Shown one piece after another: positions 1-53,528 of a stretch of 64,000 nucleotides of DNA. Under the pieces are notes generated by a model. It was not told where the DNA came from. It saw only the letters and a program-made list of their open reading frames with translations, and made no database searches. The position numbers and the translations under genes are program-made. Position 1 is the stretch's first letter. Every line of letters starts with the position of its first letter. The DNA is from an uncultured Chloroflexota bacterium (lineage in GTDB: Bacteria > Chloroflexota > Dehalococcoidia > GIF9 > AB-539-J10). Where the stretch lies: the NCBI GenBank assembly GCA_903884455.1, contig CAISEW010000037.1, positions 80,161-144,160 on the forward strand. The letters are read 5' to 3'.

Positions 1-603
1 CACCTGGTCAGCCCAGTTTAAGAAATCAGGCAGAATATCCGTGGCCCTGCCTTTCTGACCCATGCTACCATCCTCAGTGACGGGAATAAATTGAACTCCT
101 TTTGGTAAAGGCGAGAGTTTGCTTCGCTTTTTGACGGCCAAAGAAAAAGGATAGAGCTGAGCAGCAGTGCTCGCCCCATGAATTAAAGTTATCTGGTGCT
201 GAGATGAAGCATACTGCATCAAGAAAACGAGCGGAGCAATGCCAATTCCTCCAGCCACCAGCAGCAAGTGTTTTGATTTTGGTTCGATAGTAAACCCCTC
301 ACCTAAGGGGCCAAGAATGTCTAGTCTCTCGCCTGTTTGTCGCTGTGACAGCCAGAGGGTGCCTTTGCCCGCTACCTTGAACAGAAAGGCAATGTGGGAT
401 TGCTTCGCTTCGCTCGCAATGACATTATTGCTCCCAACTTGATGAACGCTGAAAGGGCGACGTAATGTGAAACCTACGCACCGCAATGTGATGAATTGCC
501 CCGGCTGAGCTGAGCAGGCTATATCTGATGCCTCAATCCACATGAGGTGTATGCCGGGCATGACCTCCGCATTAGAAGTTATGGAGCACAAGATTTGTTT
601 CAT
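1..603 (-). CDS. pyrK: dihydroorotate dehydrogenase electron-transfer subunit PyrK (C-terminus beyond window edge)
   Basis: Minus-strand ORF starting ATG at 603 (MKQILCSITSNAEVMPGIHLMWIEASD...PGQFITLRCVG..RRPFSV...GPLGEGF...GGIGIAPL); FAD/NAD-binding PyrK motifs; lies directly downstream of carB in the pyr operon; not in the ORF track because it runs off the window edge. Confidence 0.7.
   Translation of the reverse strand, partial: MKQILCSITSNAEVMPGIHLMWIEASDIACSAQPGQFITLRCVGFTLRRPFSVHQVGSNNVIASEAKQSHIAFLFKVAGKGTLWLSQRQTGERLDILGPLGEGFTIEPKSKHLLLVAGGIGIAPLVFLMQYASSQHQITLIHGASTAAQLYPFSLAVKKRSKLSPLPKGVQFIPVTEDGSMGQKGRATDILPDFLNWADQV
396..423. repeat. in-frame copy of the palindromic repeat core (GTCATTGCGAGCGAAGCGAAGCAATCCC on the coding strand) inside pyrK
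   Basis: Same core as the intergenic repeats at 48250-48368 and 51778-51939; encodes ..VIASEAKQSHIA.. within PyrK. Confidence 0.6.
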
Positions 604-631
604 GCTGAGGATTTATCCTATACTCTGCCCA

Positions 632-3600
632 TCATTTTCTGCTCTTTAAATACTCTCTGAGTGGTTGAACGTTAAAGATTTGGCTACTACTTGCTAGCGC
701 CTCTATAGCTACCCGAGCAGTATCTAATGAGGTGAAGCATGGTATCCTCTTTTCTGCCGCGGCACGCCTGATATCTAACCCGTCTTTTAGCGGAATGCGC
801 CCTCCAGTGATAGTATTAATCACTCCGCTCACAGAATTATCTTGAATAACATCAATAACGTTAGGATGCCCCTCGCTTAGCTTCTTGGTCACCATTTTTA
901 CTGGGAGCCCCATAGATTCAATCATCTCTGCGGTCCCCTCCGTGGCGTAGAGCTCATGGTGAAGGGAATGCAATTGCTTAATCAGAGGCTCGGCTTCAGC
1001 TTTATCCTTGTCGGCGATGCTAAGTAGCAGACTACCTCCTTGAGGCAGCATCAATCCAGAGGCTAAAAGGGCCTTAACCAAGGCTGCCTCAAAGGTGTAG
1101 TCAATCCCCATAACCTCGCCTGTGGATTTCATCTCAGGACCAAGGTAACTATCTACTCCAGTTAATTTGGACATAGAGAAAACGGGAGCTTTTATACCTA
1201 CCAACTTTTGTCTCTTCCGTAACCCGCCTTCGTAGCCCTGCTCCTTGAGGCTAATCCCAGCCATGACCTTAGTGGCAATTCTTACCATGGGCACGCCGGT
1301 TACCTTGGAGATAAAAGGCACGGTTCGGCTGGCGCGGGGATTTACCTCAAAAACATATACCGTTGAGCGACCATTTTCCCGCATGATTACCATCTGGACG
1401 TTCATCAACCCTTTAATTCCCAGAGCCAGTCCAATTCTGATGGTGTAATCCACCATGGCATTTACTTCGTCTTGAGTGAGATTGATTCCCGGGTAGATAG
1501 CCAAGGCATCACCGCTATGTACACCAGCTCTTTCAATATGCTCCATCACGCCAGGAATAAGAACCTTTTCCCCGTCGCAAATGGCATCTACCTCGACTTC
1601 TTTACCCTGGAAATATTTATCAACAAGCACAGGATGCTGGCTGTCCATCTCCAGAGCTAGTGTCAGGTAGCGGATTAACTCAGGTTCGTTGTACACGATT
1701 TCCATAGCCCGGCCCCCTAGAACATAGCTAGGGCGCACTAACACGGGATAACCTAAGGACTTGGCTACATTTAATGCCTCTTCAACGGATGTTACTCCAG
1801 CCCCCGGCGGCTGGGGAATCCCCAATCTGTCCAGGAAATCTTCAAAGCGACGGCGGTCTTCAGCTATGTCTATAGCTTCGGCACTCGAGCCGAGTATTGG
1901 TAGATTGTTGCGCGCTAGGACCCCAACCAAATTAATGGGTGTTTGTCCACCAAGCTGGACGATGGATGGTGGAGCAGAACCGTTATTACTCTCATTCTCA
2001 AGTATATTTCGGATGCTTTCCTCGTCCAACGCTTCGAAATAGAGGCGAGTACTGGTGTCAAAATCAGTGGAAACTGTCTCAGGATTAGAATTGACCAAGA
2101 TGCTCTTTATTCCTATCTCTTGAAGCGCCCAGGCTGAATGGACGCAGCAATAGTCAAACTCAATTCCCTGCCCGATGCGTATAGGCCCGCTGCCGATGAC
2201 CACAGCTTTCTTCCCTTCCAAAGGCGCGGCTTCGTTCTCTTTTTCATAGGTGCTGTAGAAATAAGGGGTCTCAGCATCAAATTCGGCAGCACAGGTATCC
2301 ACCATCTTGTACACCGGGCGAATTCGCCATTCATGGCGAGCCTGTCTTACCTGCTCCGGCAACCTATCGGCCAAAGTGCCCACTTGCTCATCGGAAAAGC
2401 CGAGCCTCTTCGCCTCCCATAAAAGCTCCGGTGTCAACGGTTCGGAAAGAAGCCTCCTCTCCATGTCCACAATATTCTGGAACTTATAAATAAACCAGGG
2501 GTCTATGCCGGTGACTTGGGAGAGCTCTTCGGGCGTGGCTTCCCTTCGCAGCGCCGCCATAATCGCCCATAGTCTTAAGTCGTTGGGGTGAAGGGGATAG
2601 GACTTAAGCCCTTCCTCTTTACTCCAACTGGGGTCTTCCCAGAGCAGGGTGCGTTTGCCGAATTCCAGGGAGCGCACTGCCTTTTGCATAGCAGCCTCAA
2701 AACACCTGTCAATGGCCATTACCTCACCAGTGGCTTTCATCTGGCTGCCAATTTTTCGGTCACCCAAAGCAAATTTATCAAAGGGCCATCTGGGAATCTT
2801 GACTACACAGTAATCCAGGGCTGGCTCGAAAGACGCCAGCGTTTTGCCTGTGACCTTATTAGGGATCTCATCAAGCCTCTTGCCTATGGCTATTTTGGCA
2901 GCCACCCGAGCAATAGGATAGCCAGTGGCTTTACTTGCTAAAGCTGAGCTACGGCTGACACGTGGGTTGACTTCGATTACGTGGTATTCGCTTCTTGTGA
3001 CTCCCTTTTGGTCTGGAGCCCATTTTCCCGCCACTATGGGATGTGGAGTAAGGGCAAACTGTATATTACAGCCACCCTCGATTTTCAAGGCTCTTATGAT
3101 TCTCAGACTGGCCGACCTGAGCATCTGGTATTCCTTGTCGGTGAGAGCTTGGCTAGGGGCTACCACGATGCTATCCCCGGTATGCACCCCCATAGGATCA
3201 ATGTTTTCCATATTACACACGGTAATGCAGTTATCAGCAGCATCCCGCATAACTTCGTATTCAATTTCCTTCCAGCCTAAAACGCACTGTTCCACCAGAA
3301 CTTCGTGGCTCATGCTGGAATCCAAGCCATTGGCAACAATCTGCTCAAGCTCTTTCATAGTGTAGGCGATGCCGCCGCCAGTGCCCCCCAGGGTGTACGA
3401 AGGACGGACGATGAGAGGCAAACCTATGGACCTTGCCAATTCTTTCGCCTCATTCACCGACTTCACCGTGGCGCTCTTAGGCACAGGCTCGCCAATATCA
3501 AGAAGAAGCTGCTTAAACAAAGACCTTTCCTCGGCCTTCTTTATTGTTTCTATAGGTGTGCCCAGAGACCGCACATTATACTTATCGAGTATGCCGGCAT

Positions 3601-3901
3601 CAGCTAACTCCACCGCCAGATTGAGCCCTGTCTGCCCCCCCAGGGTAGGCAATAAGCCATCGGGACGCTCTCTTTCAATTATGCGAGCCAAGACTTCCAC
3701 CGTGAGCGGCTCGATATAGACAATGTCAGCTATCTCCTCATCAGTCATAATTGTGGCCGGGTTTGAGTTCACCAGGACTGTGGTCACGCCTTCCTCCCTC
3801 AGTGCCCGGCAGGCCTGAGTCCCGGAATAATCGAACTCCGCCGCCTGCCCAATGATTATCGGCCCCGAGCCAATGACTAAGACTTTAGATAGTTTGGACA
3901 T
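632..3901 (-). CDS. carB: carbamoyl-phosphate synthase large subunit
   Basis: 1089-aa ORF with duplicated ATP-grasp halves, an MGS-like C-terminal domain and a typical CarB N-terminus [27 protein letters not shown]. Confidence 0.95.
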
Positions 3902-3918
3902 ATATTCTCTTTTCTATT

Positions 3919-5058
3919 CTAGCCTCTCACCATCTCCAGAAATCTCTCAAATAGATACATGTTGTCCAGCGGGCCCGGGGAAGCTTCGGAGTGATATTGA
4001 ATGGACAGGATGGGCAAGTCCTGGTGGCGAAGGCCCTCCACCGTGCCATCGTTTAAGTTGATGTGGCTGACTTCGAGTCCTCCTTTTAGAGTATCGGCGT
4101 CTATAGCATAGCCATGGTTCTGAGCGGTAATATAGACCCTGCTGGTAGCTAAATCACGCACAGGATGGTTGCCGCCGCGGTGCCCAAATTTGAGCTTAAA
4201 GGTCTGGGCTCCCAAGGCTTTGCCTATAAGCTGATGCCCCAGGCATATGCCCATTATGGGCTTCTTACCTATAAGATTTCTTACCGTCTCCGCTATGTCA
4301 CCAAGGAGGGCAGGGTCGCCAGGGCCAGGTGATAAGACAATGCCATCGGGATTTAAGGCCAAGACATCTTTTGCTGAAGTAGTGCACGAGATAGCGGTTG
4401 CCTGGCAGCCCAGTTGACTCAAAATGCGCAGTATATTGTATTTCAAGCCATAGTCGATAACCGCGATATGAGATTGCTTCGCTTCGCCCTCACCTTTATC
4501 CTCTCCCTTCAAGGGAGAGGAAATCAAATTCGCAGTGGCAGGCGCATGGGATTGCCACTCATATGCCTTCTCGGTGCTAACCTGATGAACAAAATCAGTA
4601 ACATCATATCTGGGTAAGGTTTTTAGCTCTTCTGACGCCTCCTCAACTGTCATTTCCGAAGTGACCATTCCCATCATGGCTCCTTGCAAGCGTAAGTGAC
4701 GAGTCAAGGCACGGGTATCTATGCCGCTGATGCCAGGAATGCCGTAGGCCAGCAGAAATTCGTGCAAAGTCCGGGTGCTTTGCCAGTGGCTGGGGCGAGG
4801 GCAATATTCTCGAACAGCTAAACCTCTGACCTGAATTTGCTTGGATTCAAAATCGGATTCGTTGATGCCATAGTTGCCAATCAAAGGATAAGTAGGGACC
4901 AGGATTTGGCCAGCGAAGGACGGGTCGGTGAGCATTTCCTGATAACCGGTCATGCTCGTACTGAATACTACCTCACCATAGGTAGTAGCCTTGGCGCCAA
5001 AGGAATGGCCTTCATAAACCGACCCATCTTCGAGGACTAAAATCGCTTTCCTAGCCAT
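3919..5058 (-). CDS. carA: carbamoyl-phosphate synthase small subunit (glutamine amidotransferase)
   Basis: 379 aa; class-I GATase motif GICLGHQ; immediately upstream of carB; carries an extra ~18-aa segment (SSPLKGEDKGEGEAKQSH) coded by a repeat insertion. Confidence 0.93.
   Translation of the reverse strand: MARKAILVLEDGSVYEGHSFGAKATTYGEVVFSTSMTGYQEMLTDPSFAGQILVPTYPLIGNYGINESDFESKQIQVRGLAVREYCPRPSHWQSTRTLHEFLLAYGIPGISGIDTRALTRHLRLQGAMMGMVTSEMTVEEASEELKTLPRYDVTDFVHQVSTEKAYEWQSHAPATANLISSPLKGEDKGEGEAKQSHIAVIDYGLKYNILRILSQLGCQATAISCTTSAKDVLALNPDGIVLSPGPGDPALLGDIAETVRNLIGKKPIMGICLGHQLIGKALGAQTFKLKFGHRGGNHPVRDLATSRVYITAQNHGYAIDADTLKGGLEVSHINLNDGTVEGLRHQDLPILSIQYHSEASPGPLDNMYLFERFLEMVRG
4467..4530. 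repeat. in-frame palindromic repeat insertion in carA (GCGAAGCGAAGCAATC core plus CTCTCCCTTCAAGGGAGAG palindrome)
   Basis: Shares a ~22-bp core with the pyrK copy and the intergenic MITE-like clusters; encodes ..GEAKQSHIA.. just as the pyrK copy encodes ..SEAKQSHIA.. Confidence 0.55.
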
Positions 5059-5073
5059 GAGGTTCTTTTACCC

Positions 5074-6432
5074 TCACTTATGCCTCCTTCCTTCAGGGGA
5101 GAGGGCAAGGGATAACAAAGAATCATCTACATAAACTATCCTACCATTTGCTATGGTCGCCATTACCTTGCCCTTAAACTGATAGCCATCGTAAGGAGTA
5201 TTTTTGCCTTTGGAGGCGAAATTGCGGCTATTCACTATCCATTCCCGGTCAGGGTCAAGTATGGTGATATTAGCTGGGGCGCCTGTCTTTAAGGTGCCTA
5301 GTTCATCATTTCTACCAATGACTTTTGCTGGCTCACAGGTTAGCTTAGAAATCAGTTGAGTAAGGCTTATTTCTCCTTGGTGCACCAAGCTCATGAGGCA
5401 GCCCAAAGCAGTTTCAAAGCCACTGATGCCAAAAGCAGCTAGCTCTAGCCCACAATTTTTGTCCGCCAGGGTATGCGGTGCATGGTCGGTGGCGATAGCA
5501 GCGATTGTTCCGTCTTTAAGTCCCTTGATTAGGACTTGGACATCCTCTTTGGTGCGCAGGGGCGGGTTTACTTTGGCATTGGTATCAAAGGGTTTGTTGG
5601 GGGACTCGCCCGCAATTCTTTCTTCGGTTAACGTCAGGTGATGAGGTGTGACCTCGGCGGTTACCGGAATCCCTTCTTTCCTGGCACGGCGAATAAGCTC
5701 CACAGAGCCCTTGGTGCTTACATGGGCAATGTGAAGTCTGGCCTTGGTCAACTTTGCCAGAATCAAGTCACGGGCTACCATAACCTCCTCAGCGGCTGCG
5801 GGAATTCCTTTTAGTCCCAACTTAGCAGACATCTGACCTTCGTTTATGATTCCATTGTCACTCAGCGCCTTATCCTCACAATGGTCGATGATTGGCAAGC
5901 CCAGGTCTCGGCTATACTCCAGGGCACGACGCATAAGCTGTGAACTTGCCACGGGGTCGCCATCGTCGCTAAAAGCAACCACCCCGGCTTCAGCCAGCCC
6001 AGCCATATCGGTTAATTCCTCGCCTTTCCTACCTTTAGTGATACAGCCTATGGGAAGAACGGCAACCAAACTATCCTTGCTCGCTTTTCGCTTCACCCGG
6101 GCTACAGCAGATGGGCTATCTAGGGGCGGATTGGTATTTGCCATACAGCAGACAGTGGTAAAACCACCTATGGCGGCTGCTTTTGTCCCTGTGGCGATTG
6201 TTTCCTTATCCTCAAAACCTGGCTCCCGGAGATGACAGTGGAGGTCTATAAAGCTGGGACAGACAATTAGTCCCGTGGCATCTAAATTCTGCGCCTTGCT
6301 TGAAATGACAGTGCCCCCTACCTGCACAATCTTGCCCTCAGCAATAAGCAAGTCACCAACCTGGTCTATGCCCTGGCTGGGGTCAATTATATGGCCGCCG
6401 CGGATAAGCAGAGAGATAACTTCCTTATTCAT
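5074..6432 (-). CDS. pyrC: dihydroorotase
   Basis: 452 aa; metal-binding DLHCHLREPG motif; position inside the pyr operon. Confidence 0.9.
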   Translation of the reverse strand: MNKEVISLLIRGGHIIDPSQGIDQVGDLLIAEGKIVQVGGTVISSKAQNLDATGLIVCPSFIDLHCHLREPGFEDKETIATGTKAAAIGGFTTVCCMANTNPPLDSPSAVARVKRKASKDSLVAVLPIGCITKGRKGEELTDMAGLAEAGVVAFSDDGDPVASSQLMRRALEYSRDLGLPIIDHCEDKALSDNGIINEGQMSAKLGLKGIPAAAEEVMVARDLILAKLTKARLHIAHVSTKGSVELIRRARKEGIPVTAEVTPHHLTLTEERIAGESPNKPFDTNAKVNPPLRTKEDVQVLIKGLKDGTIAAIATDHAPHTLADKNCGLELAAFGISGFETALGCLMSLVHQGEISLTQLISKLTCEPAKVIGRNDELGTLKTGAPANITILDPDREWIVNSRNFASKGKNTPYDGYQFKGKVMATIANGRIVYVDDSLLSLALSPEGRRHK

Positions 6433-19739: not shown

Positions 19740-19800
19740 TTTCCCTGACTTTTTATCGTATTGTCATTCTGAGAGCAGCAAAGAATCTCCAGACTTTTGC

Positions 19801-21750: not shown

Positions 21751-21967
21751 ATGCTCTTATTATACACCCCTCCACCCAATCCCCAAAGGAGATTTTTGTG
21801 CCAAATCACGGGTAAAATATCAATTTTTACAGCACACACAGCGGCTTATAGTACAAGGGCGTAAAAGTAGCAGAATTTCCCGCGACAGAACTCGATAGCG
21901 GCGACACTCAAGGGCTAGCTGCAGTTGCCTGATTTATCAGGCTTGGGGCACCGTGTCCTTAAAAACT

Positions 21968-46250: not shown

Positions 46251-47975
46251 TCATCGCTTCCTATTTAAAAAGGCCAGCAATTTTGCTAGGGGCAAAGTAT
46301 TTAATATATGCTGCGGCTCACACCAGGCCCGCCGTGCCACGCCAACCCCAAATCGCATAAAGCCCAGATGGGCAATGCTATGAGTATCGGTCCCGATGGC
46401 GAGCTTTACCCCCAAGTCTCGGGCACGGAAAGCGTGGATATCCTTTAAATCGAGGCGGTCAGGCATGGCGTTAATTTCCATAATCTTATTATACTTAGCT
46501 GCCGCCTGGAAGACGGCTTCTAAGTCTATAGCCACGGGCTCACGCTCTCCTATGAGGCGGCAAGTAAGGTGGGCAATCATGTCCACATCGGGATTTTCTA
46601 TGGCGTTTATTACCCTCCGGGTCATCCTTTCCTCGCTTTGGTTCATAGCGGAGTGCACAGCAGCAATCACCATATCCAGTTCAGATAGAATTTCGTGTGG
46701 CAGGTCTAAGCTACCATCCGCCCGAATATCCACCTCGATGCCCGTGAGCACATGAATTCCGGTTAAACACTCGTTAAGAGCTTTGATTTCAGCAAGTTGC
46801 TGCCTCAGTCTATCTACATCGAGACCATGAGCAATACCGCGTCCACCGGAATGTTCCGTGACTGCGATATATTGATAGCCCATCTCTTGGGCCGCCAGAG
46901 CCAGTTCCTCGATGGAATCATGCCCATCGCTCCATTCAGTATGCGTATGAAGGTCTCCCTTTATGTCGGGTAACTCCACGAGCTTGGGTATAGCTCCCTG
47001 CTCGGCCTTTTCTATTTCACCCTGAGCCTCTCTGAGTTCTGGCGGAATACACTGAAGCCCCAGCCGGTGGTAGAATTCTTCCTCCGTAGCAAATTTTTCC
47101 AGCTTGTCGGTAGCTACAACAGTTATCCCGTATTCACTCAGCTTTAACCCTTGCTTATGCTCTCTTTCTCTCAGGGAAATGTTATGCTGTTTGCTGCCGG
47201 TAAAATATTGAAGCAGAGAACCGAAGGAGTCATGCTCCACCATTCTCAAGTCAACCTGCAACCCGCCGCTGACAATAACGCTGGCTTTGGTTGACCCCTG
47301 GGCCAGCACCTCTCTTACGTGAGGCAGGGTCACAAAAGCATCTATAACCTCCTTGGGATTATCGGCAGTGCCCATCAGGTCAATATCACCCACCGTTTCC
47401 CGAAAGCGCCGTAAGCTGCCGGCGGCGGTGAGATTTTTCACGCCGGGGATAGAGCGGAGGGCAACTATAATTTCCTCGACGACGGGCAAAGCTTCGCCGA
47501 TGGGGATGCGCTGGTCTTTGCGGCGCAATGCCTGGATTTGGTGGAGGATATTATCAGCGGTCTTTTCGCCAAGGCGGAAGAGCTGAGCCACTCGCCCATC
47601 ATTGATTGCTCGCTCTAATTCATCCGCCGAGCTTATCCCCAATTCGCTGGAAAGCTTGTTAGCTGTCTTGGGACCAATCCCTGGTATGGCCAGGAGATTG
47701 GTTATCCCCTGGGGAAACTCCGCCTTCAGGTTCTCATAATAACCCAGCTTGCCGGTTGTTAGCAGCTCGGTGGTCTTCTTGGCTATGGCCTCACCCACGC
47801 CGGGAATACTCTGCAAGTCCTCCCCTTCCTCAATCATAACCTTTAATTCCCTGGGGTAGTGCTCGATAGCCCGGGCTGCCTTCTGATAGGCACGAATCTT
47901 AAAGACATTTTCCCCTTTAAGCTCCAGAAGGTCGGCAATGTCCTGAAATACCTTAGCCACCTCGCTGTTTTTCAT
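46251..47975 (-). CDS. polX: DNA polymerase/3'-5' exonuclease PolX (Pol-beta-like domain plus PHP domain)
   Basis: 574 aa; N-terminal HhH/Pol-beta domains, C-terminal PHP histidinol-phosphatase motifs (DLHTHTEWSDG). Confidence 0.85.
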   Translation of the reverse strand: MKNSEVAKVFQDIADLLELKGENVFKIRAYQKAARAIEHYPRELKVMIEEGEDLQSIPGVGEAIAKKTTELLTTGKLGYYENLKAEFPQGITNLLAIPGIGPKTANKLSSELGISSADELERAINDGRVAQLFRLGEKTADNILHQIQALRRKDQRIPIGEALPVVEEIIVALRSIPGVKNLTAAGSLRRFRETVGDIDLMGTADNPKEVIDAFVTLPHVREVLAQGSTKASVIVSGGLQVDLRMVEHDSFGSLLQYFTGSKQHNISLREREHKQGLKLSEYGITVVATDKLEKFATEEEFYHRLGLQCIPPELREAQGEIEKAEQGAIPKLVELPDIKGDLHTHTEWSDGHDSIEELALAAQEMGYQYIAVTEHSGGRGIAHGLDVDRLRQQLAEIKALNECLTGIHVLTGIEVDIRADGSLDLPHEILSELDMVIAAVHSAMNQSEERMTRRVINAIENPDVDMIAHLTCRLIGEREPVAIDLEAVFQAAAKYNKIMEINAMPDRLDLKDIHAFRARDLGVKLAIGTDTHSIAHLGFMRFGVGVARRAWCEPQHILNTLPLAKLLAFLNRKR

Positions 47976-48131
47976 GCTTTGCTCGCCTCCTCCCCTCCTT
48001 TATTATACCCCTGTTTCCCAAGCCTGTGATACAAGCTGCTCCAGGTCATTGCCCTGAGTAGTAGGAACCATCGGATACTTCTCCGTTTTGGTCAATGCCG
48101 TTTAAATAATGTAGTTGCCCAATTTCTTTTG

Positions 48132-48159
48132 CCCCACAAAATCTATGGATTTTGTGGGG
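48132..48159. repeat. perfect 12-bp stem palindrome CCCCACAAAATC-tatg-GATTTTGTGGGG
   Basis: Seen directly; lies between the polX start and the repeat cluster. Confidence 0.6.
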
Positions 48160-48249
48160 ACCCTGGGTTTCCAACTAAATCAGAGATTTGGTTGGATGAG
48201 AATTTATTGGGCTCCCTCCTTCTGTTATTGCGCGGTGGGCTCTCCCTTT

Positions 48250-48368
48250 GTCATTGTGAGAAGTCCTCTCCTTTTTGTCATTGCGAGGAGCGAAGCGACG
48301 AAGCAATCCCGGCGGGGCTGTTGTGGGCTGAGATTGCCACGCCCCGACAAGTCGGGGCTCGCAATGAC
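48250..48368. repeat. cluster of MITE-like palindromic repeat units (terminal inverted repeats GTCATTGCGAGG / CCTCGCAATGAC)
   Basis: GTCATTGTGAG at 48250, GTCATTGCGAGGAGCGAAGCGACGAAGCAATCCC at 48276, and inverted CTCGCAATGAC at 48358 with an internal GCCCCGAC-aagt-GTCGGGGC hairpin. It is near-identical in inverted orientation to 51778-51861. Confidence 0.65.
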
Positions 48369-48498
48369 AAAAAATGGAAGGCTTGTGATGACCAGGTGTG
48401 CCTGATAAATCAGGCAACTAGAAGAATGTGGAAGCAGGAAGCTTTTAGAATGTCGAAAGCGAAAGGAAAATCAAAAATGAACAGCCTGCTGATGAAGA

Positions 48499-48532
48499 CG
48501 AGGTCGTTGCCGGCTAGCCGGCAACGACCTCG
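48499..48532. repeat. perfect 16-bp stem / 2-nt loop hairpin CGAGGTCGTTGCCGGC-ta-GCCGGCAACGACCTCG
   Basis: Seen directly; ~160 bp downstream of the minus-strand secreted-protein gene. Confidence 0.6.
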
Positions 48533-48693
48533 GGATTATCCAAGAGCTTGCACTCGCTATGTTCAGGTTCAGCTGCCTGGACCGTAAAACTGGTTACCCC
48601 CAGCATTCACCACTCTGCCAGGGAGGCCATGATTATTGGCAAAATTCTCATCGGCCTCGCTGGGCCCCTGCTCCTACTTCCTGCCATTTTCGT

Positions 48694-49242
48694 CTAATAA
48701 GACGTTGTACCAGACCTGTCCTTAACTATACCAGTGGTACCTGGAGTCTTGGCATTCTTATCTTTGTCGCTGGGTCCCTGCTTCCACTCTGTGCCTGCTT
48801 CGTCTTTGCCATCTGGTGGGTGCCAATTGGGGTGAGTATGGAACTCGCCAACCACTTGCCCACCCACTGGCGGCATAGGGGGAGTAGCGTTGATCCCGCT
48901 ACGATTGCCGGCAGGCCAGCGCCCAACTGTTAGATTGCCATCCGCATCTTCATAGATCCACCCCCCTTCCTCATGCCGGGTAGTAGCATTGTCTGCATTT
49001 GAATCATTCCAGGCCGCACCAATCGCTGCCTTGACAGTGGGGTCATTGGCTATCTGCTCCGCAGTTTTGTTGGTTCCCAGAGGGCCAATCTCGGCAGCGA
49101 CAATGGGACCAATGGCCGTCTGCGCGACAGCAGGTACGGCCAGCACGGCTGGACTCCAGGCAATGCAGGCTATTAGCACGCACAATAAGGCTATGCATGA
49201 TTTCCAACTAGCTTTCACATTTCCTCCTTTTCCCATTGACAT
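48694..49242 (-). CDS. secreted hypothetical protein with HTHP motif
   Basis: 182 aa; N-terminal signal peptide/TM (CIALLCVLIACIAWSPAVLA); C-terminal GEFHTHPNWHPPDG motif, possibly a metal-binding or JAB-like site. Confidence 0.45.
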   Translation of the reverse strand: MSMGKGGNVKASWKSCIALLCVLIACIAWSPAVLAVPAVAQTAIGPIVAAEIGPLGTNKTAEQIANDPTVKAAIGAAWNDSNADNATTRHEEGGWIYEDADGNLTVGRWPAGNRSGINATPPMPPVGGQVVGEFHTHPNWHPPDGKDEAGTEWKQGPSDKDKNAKTPGTTGIVKDRSGTTSY

Positions 49243-49274
49243 TTCAAGCTGTTCTGTATCTGGTTGGGGTTCAC

Positions 49275-49577
49275 TTACTCGGTGTAGTAGATGTTGGTGA
49301 CATTACCGGTCGTCTTGTCCACCCAGACATGAGGCTCACCACCGCGCAGTAGAGGCGAGGAATATGGGAAAGAAATGTGCCAATAAGTTGCTTCCTCCAC
49401 GACCACGGTATCACGGCCATCCAGAGACATTACCCCGTCATCTACCACCTCTTGGGTGGCGATTGTGATTGCTTGCTCACGGCTAATACCAGTTGAGCCA
49501 CAGCCAGCAAAGGTGAGCATCAGGGTTATTACTGCTGTCCCCACCAGCAGCCACACTTTGTATCTCCTTTTTTGCAT
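49275..49577 (-). CDS. small lipoprotein with PepSY-like domain
   Basis: 100 aa; lipobox LTFAGC; PepSY-like pattern (EQAITIATQEV..G..V..V..EE..YWHISF). Confidence 0.45.
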   Translation of the reverse strand: MQKRRYKVWLLVGTAVITLMLTFAGCGSTGISREQAITIATQEVVDDGVMSLDGRDTVVVEEATYWHISFPYSSPLLRGGEPHVWVDKTTGNVTNIYYTE

Positions 49578-49780
49578 TTCCTACCTCCTTCCCTCGTCTT
49601 GGGACCACGAGGGTAATAATTTAGTTTCCTCAATACCTTACTCTAATAAAAGAGCCGACCGTGTCTGGCACGGTCGGCTCTTGGCATAACAAGTGCGACA
49701 CCCCTCTGGGGGTGGTGTATCACCCTTATACCAGTGGGTAAACTTTTCCCTATGACCCAGCACTCTACATTACCCTAATT

Positions 49781-51448
49781 TCACCATATAGCTCTCGTAG
49801 CTTCAAGTACCCCAACAATGGGGTCAACCAGGAGCTCTCTGACCAGGGTCCTCACAAAGTTGTGTTCTGATATGAAGTTTGCGATAGGTGGGCTGGTTCG
49901 GTAATAGAGGTCGACAAGTCGAGAGCCCACGGTGCTTTTCAGCAACACGTCATCTCGGAACGCTCGCAACACATCGAGCTGTTTAGCGGTGGGAGTTCCG
50001 TAGGCTGCGGTGGCGATGAAGCACCCGCCGGATGGGGGTGTTTCTGACTTAATCTGGAATTTGGCTTTGATAACATAGTCTGTGTTCGCGGTGATATTGA
50101 TAGTGGTTGTGGCGGCAGTGGCAGCAGCGATAGTGCTCACGTCGCCAGTCCAGTTGACAAACTCGTAGCCGCTAGCTGGCGTGGCTGTGAGGTTGACCAC
50201 GGTGGGACCAGTGCCGGCAGAAAAGAACAAAGTAGTCGTGGAAATTTGGACGCCGGTTGCAGGGTCCGAGGCAGTGGTGAATGCATTGTGGCCGGGAGTA
50301 GTTACCGAGCCCATGGTAGAGCTGCTGTGTATCGTCAGACAATATTTAAGCGGCGGTAAATACTTCCATATTTGTGCACTGCCGTCGATTTGATAGGAGA
50401 CGCTACCAATATAATACGCGACTGTATACTGAGGTCCGCCGGGCCATGTATGCCCAATGTCATATCCCCCAACGCTGCCCGTCTCCCAAAAAAGTACCAC
50501 CCGGGTCCCGTTCGTTCCTTCGCTGTAAACAGAGCGGGTAATTGTGCTTCCGTCTATGTCATCATCAGTCCATACGGTTGTCACTGGGCCGGTGGTTGTA
50601 TTGTTGACCTCACGCCAGTAAGTGATAGTGTCAGGGGTAGAATAACCAAAGTTATTGCACATGTGAACAGGGCGGCCCTCGGGGGTGCATTCCCCTGCCT
50701 CTGGAATGATTGGGTCTGTTGGGCTCCGTATCGCAATCACGGTTGTTGGAGCCGGAGTCGTAGTGGCGTTCCCCAGATTTAAGTCCATTGGTCCAGTAAC
50801 TGGTCCGATGCCTGCAAACACGCCCGCCAGGTTAAAGGCCAGGTAATATGAAAACATGGCGCCGTTGGACATTCCCGTGGCATAGATTCGGCTTGTATTA
50901 ATCGCATAGTTAGCTTCAAACCAGTCAACTATATCCGCAGTAAATCCCACATCATCAACACCTGCGCAATATTGCAAGGGAGCAATTGGTGTTCCATTGA
51001 TGGCACCACAATTCCACATGATGTTAGAACCAGTCAAGCCTGGTAAAGTCCAATTGTTGGCAGTCATGCAGTCACTCCACCTCGAATCATGTTCATCTAA
51101 TGCTGTGGCATCAGGATACACGGCAATAAACCCTTCTGCATCGGCGAGTGCATCAAACTTGGTTAGATCGATTTGTCCCGGTCCGCTGCTGCCCAGGCCG
51201 TGAAACGAAAACAACAGGGGAACCGGCGTGGCGTTGTTTGTGACGTTGCAACTGGACGGGATATAGTATTCAAATGTGCGGTTAAAAACCCAACTGCTAT
51301 TTACAGTAGAGGTCTCCGTCATCCAACCCGTGTGAAGCCCGTGTGTGTACTCAGGTGGGGGCGCGGCGACAACAATAGAACTCCCCACAGGTAACACCAT
51401 CGCCATGATTACCAAAAGAGCAATAATGCAATATTTCTTTAAAGCCAT
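49781..51448 (-). CDS. secreted alpha/beta-hydrolase esterase (PHB-depolymerase/LpqC-like) with conserved Cys-containing C-terminal domain
   Basis: 555 aa; signal peptide; FSFHGLGSSG and nucleophile motif GMSNGAM; Thr/Ala-rich linker; C-terminal GGCFIATAAYGTP...LRAFRDDVL module. Confidence 0.6.
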   Translation of the reverse strand: MALKKYCIIALLVIMAMVLPVGSSIVVAAPPPEYTHGLHTGWMTETSTVNSSWVFNRTFEYYIPSSCNVTNNATPVPLLFSFHGLGSSGPGQIDLTKFDALADAEGFIAVYPDATALDEHDSRWSDCMTANNWTLPGLTGSNIMWNCGAINGTPIAPLQYCAGVDDVGFTADIVDWFEANYAINTSRIYATGMSNGAMFSYYLAFNLAGVFAGIGPVTGPMDLNLGNATTTPAPTTVIAIRSPTDPIIPEAGECTPEGRPVHMCNNFGYSTPDTITYWREVNNTTTGPVTTVWTDDDIDGSTITRSVYSEGTNGTRVVLFWETGSVGGYDIGHTWPGGPQYTVAYYIGSVSYQIDGSAQIWKYLPPLKYCLTIHSSSTMGSVTTPGHNAFTTASDPATGVQISTTTLFFSAGTGPTVVNLTATPASGYEFVNWTGDVSTIAAATAATTTINITANTDYVIKAKFQIKSETPPSGGCFIATAAYGTPTAKQLDVLRAFRDDVLLKSTVGSRLVDLYYRTSPPIANFISEHNFVRTLVRELLVDPIVGVLEATRAIW

Positions 51449-51777
51449 TTTTTCCTCCTCCCTTTTTAGATGCTTTTTACATAAAAAGGCATAATAAAAC
51501 TCATAGAACTATATTTACTCTATAACCTTCACCTCCTTTATGGTACGTATCTACTAAATGCCAACAACTATTGCTTACAAACTTATACGCACAGGTTTTT
51601 AAAAGCCTGGCTGTTACGGTACCCTGGAAATTGCTGCAGATGGTATTTTGTCATTAGAAGAAAGACGTCAGGAAACTTTTCCCCGGATTACAAACCTTTA
51701 AAAGTTAATTATAGCAGATTTCTGCTTCGAATGTCAACTGCTTGTACTCGTTCATATGATTAGTGACACCCTTTTTT

Positions 51778-51939
51778 GTCGTTGCGAGCCCCGACCTGTC
51801 GGGGCGTGGCAATCTCATGCCCCACCGAGATTGCTTTGTCGCCTTCGGCTCCTCGCAATGACAGAAGGGGGATTGCGGAGCCTGTTCCGAAGCGTAAGCG
51901 AGGAATCTCGTTCCTCGCAATGACAGGGAGGTCATTGTC
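51778..51939. repeat. second cluster of the MITE-like repeat family (inverted relative to 48250-48368) plus partial units
   Basis: The reverse complement of 51778-51861 aligns with 48276-48368 with a few mismatches; further CCTCGCAATGAC and GTCATTGTC units run to 51939. Confidence 0.65.
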
Positions 51940-52113
51940 CAACGTTGCAAATTTATGAAGTGTCACCCATCTATCTGAACTAGATCACTGCTAACGCTGC
52001 ATGGTTGCTGCTTGAACGGATTGTCTAAATAGTCGTTTATGGTACACTAATGCCATTAGAAGGCAGTTTGGGAACCATGGATTAATAAAAAGGCGTAATC
52101 CGTCGCAACTGGA

Positions 52114-52737
52114 ATGCCAAAGTACATCAAAAACAGGATATTATGGGGCTATGACCTTAACCTTGTGGCGGTGGTCAGCATATCCACGCTGGTATTAGTC
52201 CTGGAACGTTATCATCATTTAAACATCGATTTTCCCCGGGCAACGGAGCTCATTTATTACCTGCTGGTCCCGCTGGCGGCAAGTTTTTTGCTTTTTCGGG
52301 ATAAGCCCTGGGATTATGGCATCCGCATCGGCCGCTGGAAATCGGCGATAATTCTAGCCGTAGTCTGCCTTGCTGCCATGGCGCTGATTCTCTACAGGGT
52401 CGGTAAAATGCCTGAGTTTCGCTCTTACTACCACGAGTCTCACATAGACTGGTCCGAGCTGCTGCTCGACGCCGCACTATACATGTTTGCCTGGGAATTT
52501 CTGTTCCGCGGATATATGCTGTTCGGTCTGGAAAAATCGATAGGCAAAAGCGCCATCTTTGTGCAGGCCATTCCCTTCGTGCTGCTTCATCTGGGCAAGC
52601 CCTTTTTGGAGACGCTGGCCTGCATCCCCGGCGGCTTTATTTTTGGTTACGTGGCATACCGAACGAGGTCGTTTTTGCCCTGTTTTGTTATACACTTCGG
52701 CATCTACGTAATGATGTTCTTTTTTACCAATTCCTAG
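52114..52737 (+). CDS. CPBP-family (CAAX protease / Abi) intramembrane metalloprotease
   Basis: 207 aa polytopic membrane protein; motifs WEFLFRGYM and FVLLHLGK (EExxxR / FxxxH). Confidence 0.7.
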   Translation: MPKYIKNRILWGYDLNLVAVVSISTLVLVLERYHHLNIDFPRATELIYYLLVPLAASFLLFRDKPWDYGIRIGRWKSAIILAVVCLAAMALILYRVGKMPEFRSYYHESHIDWSELLLDAALYMFAWEFLFRGYMLFGLEKSIGKSAIFVQAIPFVLLHLGKPFLETLACIPGGFIFGYVAYRTRSFLPCFVIHFGIYVMMFFFTNS

Positions 52738-52763
52738 GGACTCGGTGCAGTTCTGCGTTCTGC

Positions 52764-53528
52764 TTAGAATGGGAAGGGGGGGAAGTAGGGGAGCACATTG
52801 GCAGGGAACAGGATGAGCAGGAGCCCGATAATTGTCGGCCACTGGGCAAGGTATATCACCAGCGGATGTTTTCCCGGCAAAGTCAGCGCTGAGGTAACAG
52901 GGTCGTTGAATTCAGGTATATTGAATCGTCTATTTCCTTGCGGGTATAGCATTTTGCCGCAAAACATCCCCACAAGAAAAAGGCCGAACCACGGCAGCAG
53001 CGGGAAGTAATCCCACGTCGCAAAGCTGTATGGCATCAGCCAGAGCAGCCAGGGAAAGTTGAAAGGAGTGCCCCACAGGTAAATACCTGCTGCCAGCAGA
53101 GCGATGCCCAGTATCAGGTTGATGAAGCGGAATCTTAAAAAGAAAGGCGCGAGTATGAACGTAATCCCGAAGAAGTGAAGTATGCCGAATCGGACGTACT
53201 CTGTTCTGGAGATTAGCAATGTAATCAGAGTAATCGCCATGCCCCACCCGAATATTTTCAGGCCTCTGAGCAGAAATCCCGACATTCTCTTTGACCTGGA
53301 ATAAGTGATTGTGAGCGATACTCCGGCGAGGAAGATAAAAGTCCCAGCGGTTACTCTGGCAAACCACCACCAGAACCCATGATATACGTTAGTGGGGTGG
53401 ATATCAAAGAAGTTAAGTAGATAGAGCACGTGGAAAGTTATCATCATTGCTATGGCGACGGTGCGCAACAGGTCTATCTCCCAGAAACGGTTATGCCCGG
53501 TTGTATTAATCTGAGTGTTGCCCGCCAT
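52764..53528 (-). CDS. DUF1624-like (heparan-alpha-glucosaminide N-acetyltransferase-like) membrane protein
   Basis: 254 aa polytopic membrane protein; N-terminal RFWEIDLLRTVAIAMMITFHV signature. Confidence 0.55.
   Translation of the reverse strand: MAGNTQINTTGHNRFWEIDLLRTVAIAMMITFHVLYLLNFFDIHPTNVYHGFWWWFARVTAGTFIFLAGVSLTITYSRSKRMSGFLLRGLKIFGWGMAITLITLLISRTEYVRFGILHFFGITFILAPFFLRFRFINLILGIALLAAGIYLWGTPFNFPWLLWLMPYSFATWDYFPLLPWFGLFLVGMFCGKMLYPQGNRRFNIPEFNDPVTSALTLPGKHPLVIYLAQWPTIIGLLLILFPANVLPYFPPFPF

Follow-up and report, generated by a model that had tools for sequence, protein, structure and literature searches.

Probable REP-type repeat units in frame within pyrimidine genes of an uncultured Chloroflexota bacterium

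The closest described relatives of the repeats reported here are the CGTC-tagged repetitive extragenic palindromes (REPs) of Di Nocera, De Gregorio and Rocco (2013, BMC Genomics 14:522; PMC3733652), which carry a CGTC or TGTC tag (with a CCTC variant), stems opening with A-T pairs and CCA tails, form inverted dimers, and occur in five phyla without a dedicated transposase. This superfamily encompasses RPE-4 and RPE-6 of Rickettsia and dRS3 of Neisseria, and its members lie in frame in well over 100 open reading frames (ORFs), including uvrA and the gene for FGAM synthase (Additional file 3, PMC3733652). REPs have been reported to influence mRNA stability and termination, and Chloroflexi are not among the listed hosts of the CGTC group (PMC3733652). 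Here we analyze a 64,000-nucleotide stretch of DNA from an uncultured Chloroflexota bacterium (contig CAISEW010000037.1; hereafter, the window), in which two genes of the pyrimidine (pyr) operon, pyrK and carA, contain in-frame repeat segments that are, in our judgement, very probably copies of a REP-type non-autonomous element that landed there in frame. The family fits the CGTC-tagged REP superfamily, in which the in-frame phenomenon is already known, and its modular head-box-tail architecture is a variant.

The tag, a stem beginning with A-T/T-A pairs, a CCA-like tail, inverted dimers and the lack of a flanking transposase are all seen in the present family. Furthermore, both groups span several phyla, are most abundant in Alphaproteobacteria and have in-frame copies in uvrA and the FGAM synthase gene. 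In contrast, CGTC-1 to CGTC-4 have a continuous 8-9 bp stem with a 4-5 nt loop, whereas the present units have a 5-bp outer stem and an exchangeable inner hairpin. The peptides read from CGTC-1 to CGTC-4 are VIPAKAGI / SFPRKRES, VIPGLDPGIH, VIPVLDTGI and similar, and the peptides of the present family (VIASEAKQS, SLRAKRSNL and LLRFARND) are absent from the table of intragenic copies in Additional file 3.

The original prediction likened the in-frame spread of these repeats to that of Rickettsia palindromic elements (RPEs) and held such behaviour to be rarely reported elsewhere. The likeness is apt, since RPEs spread in frame and RPE-4 and RPE-6 belong to the matching CGTC superfamily (PMC3733652). 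The claim of rarity did not survive: more than 100 ORFs with in-frame copies are documented in PMC3733652, a 2024 review (PMC10969869) calls in-frame fusions of transposable elements of the miniature inverted-repeat type (MITEs) 'not unusual' with RPEs as the extreme case, and we find the present family itself in GuaA, UvrA, PurL and a phage portal gene. As the work of Ogata et al. (2000 Science 290:347; 2002 Genome Res 12:808) is cited in that review, RPEs are in-frame selfish palindromes in unrelated housekeeping genes; like the present units they are in frame, and they are translated and thought to be placed where the protein fold tolerates them, as may also hold for the present units. In the same account, RPE-1-type elements are about 100-150 bp long and restricted to Rickettsia, whereas the present units are 28-70 nt long, differ in sequence and occur in many phyla and in phages. 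The RPE-4 and RPE-6 peptides (VIPVLDTGI-like, VIPAKAGI / SFPRKRES / DSRFRGND) also differ from VIASEAKQS / SLRAKRSNL, so that the plan alone is shared.

A wider comparison can be drawn with REPs and the REPIN-RAYT system (Nunvar et al. 2010, PMC2817692; Bertels and Rainey 2011), which resemble the present family in their short hairpins with an unpaired 5' tag, in the inverted doublet as the likely mobile form, in alternating clusters of the bacterial interspersed mosaic element (BIME) kind and in the lack of target-site duplication. REPINs, however, have a GTAG/GTGG-type tag and a REP-flanked RAYT gene, whereas the present units have a C/TGTC tag and no RAYT-like gene was found in the loci sampled. 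Dimers with inverted ends are also seen here, but the absence of a visible target-site duplication sets them apart from MITEs.

Repeat units within pyrK, carA and pyrC

The genes pyrK, carB, carA and pyrC lie on the minus strand in the first part of the window (Table 1). A 22-nt core, GCGAAGCGAAGCAATCYCAYAT, occurs exactly at 392-413 and 4466-4487 (both minus), within pyrK and carA, and nowhere else in the window, and has no match in 100 dinucleotide shuffles of the window. When the comparison is extended to 389-418 and 4463-4492, 25 of the 30 positions are identical. Both copies are in frame, PyrK reading NNVIASEAKQSHIA and CarA reading SSPLKGEDKGEGEAKQSHIA, and the pyrK unit itself (396-423) is translated as VIASEAKQS. 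These results bear out the earlier statements that both genes share a core and that it is read in frame. The head of the unit, GTCATTGCGAG, is present seven times in the window with at most one mismatch, compared to an expectation of 0.94. Reading frames are intact in pyrK, carA and more than 100 homologs of each, from which translation is inferred.

The window PyrK was compared with 120 relatives (73-100% identity; 121 sequences in total). Between RRPFS(V/I)HQ and IALLFKV, this comparison reveals three states at a single codon position: an empty site (HQVSSRE; 27/121), a short-unit allele (VIASEAKQS; approximately 48/121, including variants with a nested hairpin or with different boxes, VIASPDAIGTKQS and VIASDLPAKAWQAGAKQS among them) and a long-box hairpin allele (SSPLTGEDSGEGE; approximately 46/121). 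Empty pyrK DNA reads CAA GTT TCA CCC CGG GAG ATT GCC, and the window reads CAA GTT GGG AGC AAT AAT GTC ATT GCG AGC GAA GCG AAG CAA TCC CAC ATT GCC; against the empty allele of relatives L121 and L125, the filled site has 42 nt in place of 12 (TCACCCCGGGAG), a net gain of ten codons, and the alignment of filled and empty DNA displays no visible target-site duplication. The empty loop is of the same length class as in the solved Lactococcus PyrK, which has a short, gap-aligned loop there between the RRPISI strand and the next strand, and the insertion sites in both proteins align with gap-prone loops of the solved E. coli CarA and Lactococcus PyrK structures. An example of a predicted peptide spanning the junction is NNVIASEAKQSHIAF. 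Near the C-terminal Fe-S domain, PyrK relatives carry either SLRAKRSNL, which is the unit read in another frame, or a long-box composite.

In CarA, the repeat constitutes the interdomain linker. The original prediction described a core together with a separate CTCTCCC..GGGAGAG palindrome, and an extra linker of about 18 residues. Both sequences are present, but they are the tail and the variable box of one unit: the 70-nt segment at 4470-4539 aligns with metagenome copies carrying a normal head, and is therefore one full unit. The insert is likewise real, although about 23 residues long when measured by the 70-nt unit, and it is 'extra' only relative to minimal CarA proteins, over which the window CarA has a surplus of approximately 20-23 residues, equal to one unit. 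The carA head is diverged (8/11 identical to the normal head) and the hairpin folds at -12.8 kcal/mol (z = -3.5). A metagenome scan for the hairpin followed by GGTGAGGG and GCGAAGCAATC returned 63 places, in which intergenic copies with a normal head read GTCATTGCGAG-CCATATTT-CCTCTCCCTTGAAGGGAGAGG-ATTAA-GGTGAGGG-TGAAAAG-GCGAAGCAATCTC. The TAA-creating ATTAA spacer, in the frame used by carA, is found in 20 of 30 non-coding long-box copies and in 0 of 33 read-through copies, a partly circular count that is consistent with selection on translation. Two other assignments of the hairpin were discarded. The CTCTCCCTTCAAGGGAGAG hairpin had been considered as a separate 'family B' that had hit a truncated unit, but complete copies show head, hairpin and tail as one unit; and a PyrR-binding site was rejected because Rfam yielded no match and the hairpin also occurs in unrelated genes.

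Each of the 120 closest CarA homologs (86% identity or more) possesses a unit-derived linker, although of differing kinds. The window and most other close homologs have the long-box unit, L125 has in its place a complete short unit (GTCATTGCGAGGAGCGTCAGCGACGAAGCAATCTC, read as SLRGASATKQS), and in L121 and L124 the linker is a nested, longer form with the same box as the intergenic unit at 51871-51924. The nearest named relative, Chloroflexi bacterium RBG_13_51_36, shows 89% CarA identity. In a broader alignment of 150 distant representatives plus E. coli CarA (151 sequences), the linker segment reaches 146 residues, with 26-29 the commonest length and 49 in the window. E. coli CarA has 43 residues there, indicating that the linker is a generally permissive place. 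The window linker peptide is found in none of the 70 distant linkers displayed. Together with the three states of PyrK, this indicates that both segments are lineage-specific insertions, as had been proposed. One distant representative (P0308) carries a 95-residue linker with VMPVKTGI and DSRFHGNDK, which are typical of other CGTC REP families, so that REPs seem to have struck the CarA linker on an independent occasion in a further lineage.

The whole pyr operon is a hot spot for units. At the 3' end of pyrC, the element at 5071-5105 supplies the final residues (..LSPEGRRHK) together with the stop codon, and relative L124 has a short unit at the same pyrC-carA spot (L124:2908-2945), the tail of which (..AATCTC) runs into the carA ATG. 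The probable decayed unit within pyrC lies at about residue 45, the codon position at which relatives L122 (VIASEAKQS) and L124 (a long nested box) carry canonical units; it may be an old copy that has decayed or else a native look-alike to which units are drawn. Target duplications are not visible at the CarA and PyrC sites or at the pyrC-carA junction.

Table 1. Repeat units, their parts and the pyr genes in the window
Feature	Position	Strand	Sequence or content
pyrK	start codon 603	minus	ORF runs past the window start
carB	632-3901	minus	
carA	3919-5058	minus	
pyrC	5074-6432	minus	
Short-box REP unit in pyrK	396-423	minus	GTCATTGCGAG-CGAAGC-GAAGCAATCCC; 28 nt
pyrK unit, head	413-423	minus	GTCATTGCGAG
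pyrK unit, box	407-412	minus	CGAAGC
pyrK unit, tail	398-406	minus	GAAGCAATC, then CC
pyrK segment differing from the empty allele	394-435	minus	42 nt: GGGAGCAATAAT + unit + AC
Long-box REP unit, CarA interdomain linker	4470-4539	minus	70 nt; encodes ATANLISSPLKGEDKGEGEAKQS
carA unit, diverged head	4529-4539	minus	GCCACTGCGAA
carA unit, hairpin	4500-4520	minus	CCTCTCCCTTGAAGGGAGAGG
carA unit, segment between hairpin and tail	4487-4494	minus	GGTGAGGG
carA unit, tail	4470-4482	minus	GCGAAGCAATCTC
Long-box-type hairpin element, pyrC 3' end	5071-5105	minus	just upstream of the carA start
Probable decayed unit in pyrC	6283-6309	minus	GTCATTTCAAGCAAGGCGCAGAATTTA (VISSKAQNL); 18/27 identical to the canonical unit
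Sister-family unit, single, intergenic	19763-19793	plus	GTCATTCTGAG-AGCAGCAAA-GAATCTC; whole GTCATTCTGAGAGCAGCAAAGAATCTC
Cluster 1	48250-48368		
Cluster 1, head-only remnant	48250-48260	plus	
Cluster 1, unit	48277-48310	plus	12-nt box
Cluster 1, inverted unit	48330-48368	minus	CCCCGAC..GTCGGGG box
Cluster 2	51778-51924		
Cluster 2, unit	51778-51816	plus	
Cluster 2, unit	51827-51862	minus	
Cluster 2, unit	51871-51924	minus	
Head copies besides pyrK (at most one mismatch)	48250, 48277, 48358-48368, 51778, 51852-51862, 51914-51924		GTCATTGCGAG

Other observations concern the same genes. Within pyrK, the stretch at 115-134 (minus; GTCAAAAAGCGAAGCAAACTC, VKKRSKL) resembles a shortened unit, and some relatives have another repeat-like peptide, CQLTAISYQ, at this patch; PTKSGQ and VLRLRSGQA are read at further variable patches of PyrK among the relatives. 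A full-length AlphaFold2 prediction of PyrK (P0123, 55-sequence alignment) gave a mean predicted local distance difference test score of 37.5 and was unusable, the homologs being too alike. Between carA and carB, relative L122 has a TIR-domain gene (Pfam PF10137, CAP12-PCTIR_TIR) and a 129-aa ORF (L122:3242-4531), the former possibly a defence gene.

Architecture and distribution of the family

To describe the family beyond the window, we scanned one genome per GTDB species with GTCATTGCGAG-N(3-12)-GAAGCAATC, which returned at least 120 loci with 158 units among the matches listed, and IMG/VR, which returned at least 120 viral loci with 180 viral units among the matches listed. The units share a plan composed of a head, (C/T)GTCATTGCGAG, a hairpin box that varies freely and measures 4 to about 50 nt, and a tail, G(C)GAAGCAATC(C/T)(A/C). 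The base preceding GTC is C in 106 and T in 44 of the 158 genome units listed, and the base preceding GTCATTGCGAG is C in 89 and T in 82 of the 180 viral units listed; the genic copies of the window carry the TGTC tag. ATTGC ... GCAAT follows the tag directly in every unit, and GCAAT is itself followed by C, then C (105) or T (43), then A (88) or C (53) among the 158 units, defining a CCA-like end that reads CCC or CTC in the window copies.

Only five outer pairs are formed, followed by a GAG/GAA internal loop and the variable inner hairpin. Longer boxes are small hairpins with compensating changes (e.g. CGGCGAAGCCG, GCACGAAGTGC and GACCGCAGGTC), whose best stems exceed those of all 500 shuffles. 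Complete elements mostly consist of two inverted units around a 15-30 nt loop, and one such inverted dimer folds at -34 kcal/mol (z = -9.3). The predicted palindromic nature thus holds for the family; the pyrK copy consists of one unit, which amounts to half a palindrome of the usual kind and has little predicted self-structure (z = -0.1). The short unit is open in five of six frames. Its commonest box, taken with the preceding G, reads GCGNAGC, with N free (A 34, C 18, T 9, G 6). Hirao and co-workers reportedly described d(GCGAAGC), or GCGNAGC, in the 1990s as a GNA-triloop DNA mini-hairpin of unusual stability. The pattern is the same, N being free here too; that mini-hairpin is a structural motif, not a mobile element, and its occurrence in the boxes may hint at recognition of the units as single-stranded DNA.

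The window contains about nine repeat units, of which the clear genic copies are those of pyrK and carA, plus the pyrC relic. The remainder include two intergenic clusters, both BIME-like groups of units with different boxes. The 34-mer quoted earlier for cluster 1 is found verbatim at 48277-48310. Cluster 2 was correctly assigned to the same family and has three units with other boxes, but it ends at 51924 rather than at 51939. A single intergenic sister-family unit (19763-19793) has a similar head and tail plan, but an ATTC/GAAT stem. At the gathering level, Rfam identified only tRNA in the whole window, and relaxing the threshold to E <= 1 over 48.1-52.1 kb yielded two chance-level matches, so that no described RNA family covers the units there.

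Exact units are found in at least 18 phyla in the genome scan and in phage-like contigs. Hosts comprise Alpha- and Gammaproteobacteria, Desulfobacterota, Campylobacterota, Bacteroidota, Ignavibacteria, Cyanobacteria, Melainabacteria, Chloroflexota, Patescibacteria, Planctomycetota, Negativicutes, Zixibacteria, Latescibacterota, Omnitrophota, Gemmatimonadota, Armatimonadota, Fibrobacterota-like bacteria and others. In the genomes sampled, the family lies in frame in GMP synthase (GuaA), UvrA and FGAM synthase (PurL), all above NCBIfam cut-offs, and long-box units lie in frame at a second PyrK site and in chorismate synthase (AroC), CobU, a DUF1015 protein and a class-I tRNA ligase. One viral contig (L154, IMGVR_UViG_3300031358_000051) has an SPP1-like portal gene with an in-frame unit pair (..EIATPSARNDSPFVSLRGAEHRSNL..), and the genes recurring between units in IMG/VR loci encode portal, capsid and tail proteins. 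In several viral contigs, units separate capsid and tail genes. Clustering of the 409 ORFs bracketed by inverted units in all loci sampled recovered phage structural genes only, with no RAYT-like cluster. Candidate REPtron-like transposases were sought between the two window clusters, where the ORFs are secreted or esterase-like, and between two Bradyrhizobium units (L017), where one is LysE-like and the other an unrelated ORF; neither place holds such a gene. Full-text searches of the literature for the DNA strings and peptides of the units returned primer coincidences or nothing.

Several features of the surroundings of the intergenic clusters are also apparent. Clusters 1 and 2 form 56-nt arms that are 89% complementary and enclose three minus-strand genes (48694-49242, 49275-49577 and 49781-51448), one of which encodes a 555-aa secreted esterase-like protein. 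The bracketed genes sit between polX (46251-47975) and a Rce1-like gene (52114-52737). In relatives L121 and L122, the polX/Rce1 junction is just 140-190 nt long and free of units, so the 3.7-kb block looks like an insertion flanked by inverted REP clusters. In the same relatives, yjbQ, polX and the Rce1-like gene follow pyrK within 3 kb. The polX/Rce1 block of the window (46251-53528) is about 46 kb from pyrK (1-603), indicating that a rearrangement separates them. Finally, 21923-21942 and 48400-48419 form a perfect 20-nt inverted pair with the palindrome GCCTGATAAATCAGGC, and this palindrome hairpin recurs as a unit box in metagenome loci (..GCGAGGCCCGATTTATCGGGCCGAAGCAATC..).

Origin and spread of the genic copies

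Taken as REP-type copies, units have landed at several places in the pyr operon of this lineage: a beta-hairpin loop of PyrK, the linker between the CarA domains, the 3' end of pyrC and, among relatives, additional positions in PyrK and PyrC. Surviving copies keep the frame without stops and lie in length-variable places, where they are read as 9-23 extra hydrophilic residues; after insertion, the box is swapped or gains nested insertions, with head and tail unchanged. The units may move as folded single-stranded DNA through a trans-acting enzyme, whether HUH/tyrosine-transposase-like or some other function of the host or of a phage; phages may carry them from phylum to phylum; and purifying selection would presumably leave only in-frame copies in essential genes.

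Several points weigh against this interpretation. Copy counts for the source genome refer to the 64-kb window, not to a genome-wide census. No transposase or recurrent candidate gene was found beside or between units in the window or in the listed 120 genome and 120 viral loci, so that the mobilization step is entirely inferred. A neighbor-joining tree with Fitch mapping (121 PyrK sequences, 159 columns) scatters the three states and implies 49 changes, a count of events that we did not use since 159 columns probably leave the tree unresolved; empty alleles could in principle be secondary deletions, and the tree fixes neither the direction nor the number of events. Moreover, the reverse complement of the tail, GAGATTGC, is already present in the empty PyrK allele. 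This, the 12 nt replaced and the lack of a target duplication make the insertion boundaries ambiguous, and such boundaries also fit recombination or template switching. The siting of the insertions in surface loops, in turn, is suggested by alignment to solved structures and by length variability.

Some of these same observations would be expected if units spread and diversified mainly by gene conversion, or by replication template switching between copies and partly similar sites, an explanation that we consider possible but doubtful. Heads and tails stay fixed while the box varies among orthologous copies (PyrK site 1, CarA linker and PyrC site), the long-box-plus-tail composite occurs independently in carA and at the second pyrK site, GAGATTGC in the empty PyrK allele is complementary to the tail, the window pyrC has its 18/27 look-alike where relatives hold canonical units, and no transposase was found. 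Conversion, however, requires a prior homologous target and accounts neither for how units first reached hundreds of unrelated loci nor for the occurrence of the family in phages and at least 18 phyla, and the pyrC look-alike might just as well be an old unit that has decayed. It seems improbable that the genic copies are kept for use, either as a linker or loop of CarA and PyrK or as a hairpin that acts by pausing, attenuation or mRNA stability to regulate the polycistronic pyr operon. A unit-derived linker is retained in 120/120 of the closest CarA homologs, the carA hairpin is stable and an effect of REPs on mRNA stability and termination has been reported (PMC3733652); yet the PyrK site is freely empty, short or long-box in close relatives, the boxes and lengths of the CarA linker are repeatedly replaced, units also occur in unrelated genes and intergenic DNA, and there is neither an Rfam match, PyrR site included, nor significant predicted structure in the pyrK unit.

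Two further explanations can be given next to no credence. That EAKQSHIA is ancestral or convergent protein sequence, with incidental DNA likeness, might be argued from the trailing 'IA', native in PyrK (empty alleles read ..EIALLF), and from the similar length of the E. coli CarA linker, but this idea is already refuted by the zero chance expectation for the core, by identical units in intergenic DNA of the window and of many phyla, by the existence of empty alleles and by the 0/70 displayed distant CarA linkers with the peptide. Equally, the closest relatives are metagenome-derived, and repeats can cause misassembly, which would make the genic repeats artefacts of assembly or binning; the same in-frame segments, with intact frames, nevertheless appear in dozens of independent JGI, ENA, NCBI and Logan assemblies. 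The REP-type copies thus described could conceivably belong to one pan-bacterial, phage-borne family that lacks its own transposase and whose ends, GTCATTGCGAG and GAAGCAATC, are recognized by a conserved host or phage function acting on single-stranded DNA, with the box as an exchangeable cassette swapped in situ; we regard this as rather unlikely. If it were true, in-situ box swaps would amount to a built-in remodelling of surface loops of housekeeping enzymes, a bacterial analogue of cassette or exon shuffling.

Implications for protein-coding palindromic repeats

For annotation, the peptides VIASEAKQS, SLRAKRSNL, LLRFARND and SPLKGEDKGEG mark repeat-derived loops or spurious ORFs, and not conserved motifs. 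With the repeats described here, a free-living Chloroflexi lineage joins Rickettsia and a few Proteobacteria and Verrucomicrobia as a carrier of palindromic repeats that code for protein. In this lineage, a single operon offers a natural experiment, with empty, short and long-box states of PyrK in close relatives and a CarA linker that has been repeatedly rebuilt. Furthermore, at least 18 phyla and phage contigs share the same 20 conserved bases, with no transposase found close by, which sharpens the question raised in 2013 of what moves CGTC-type REPs.

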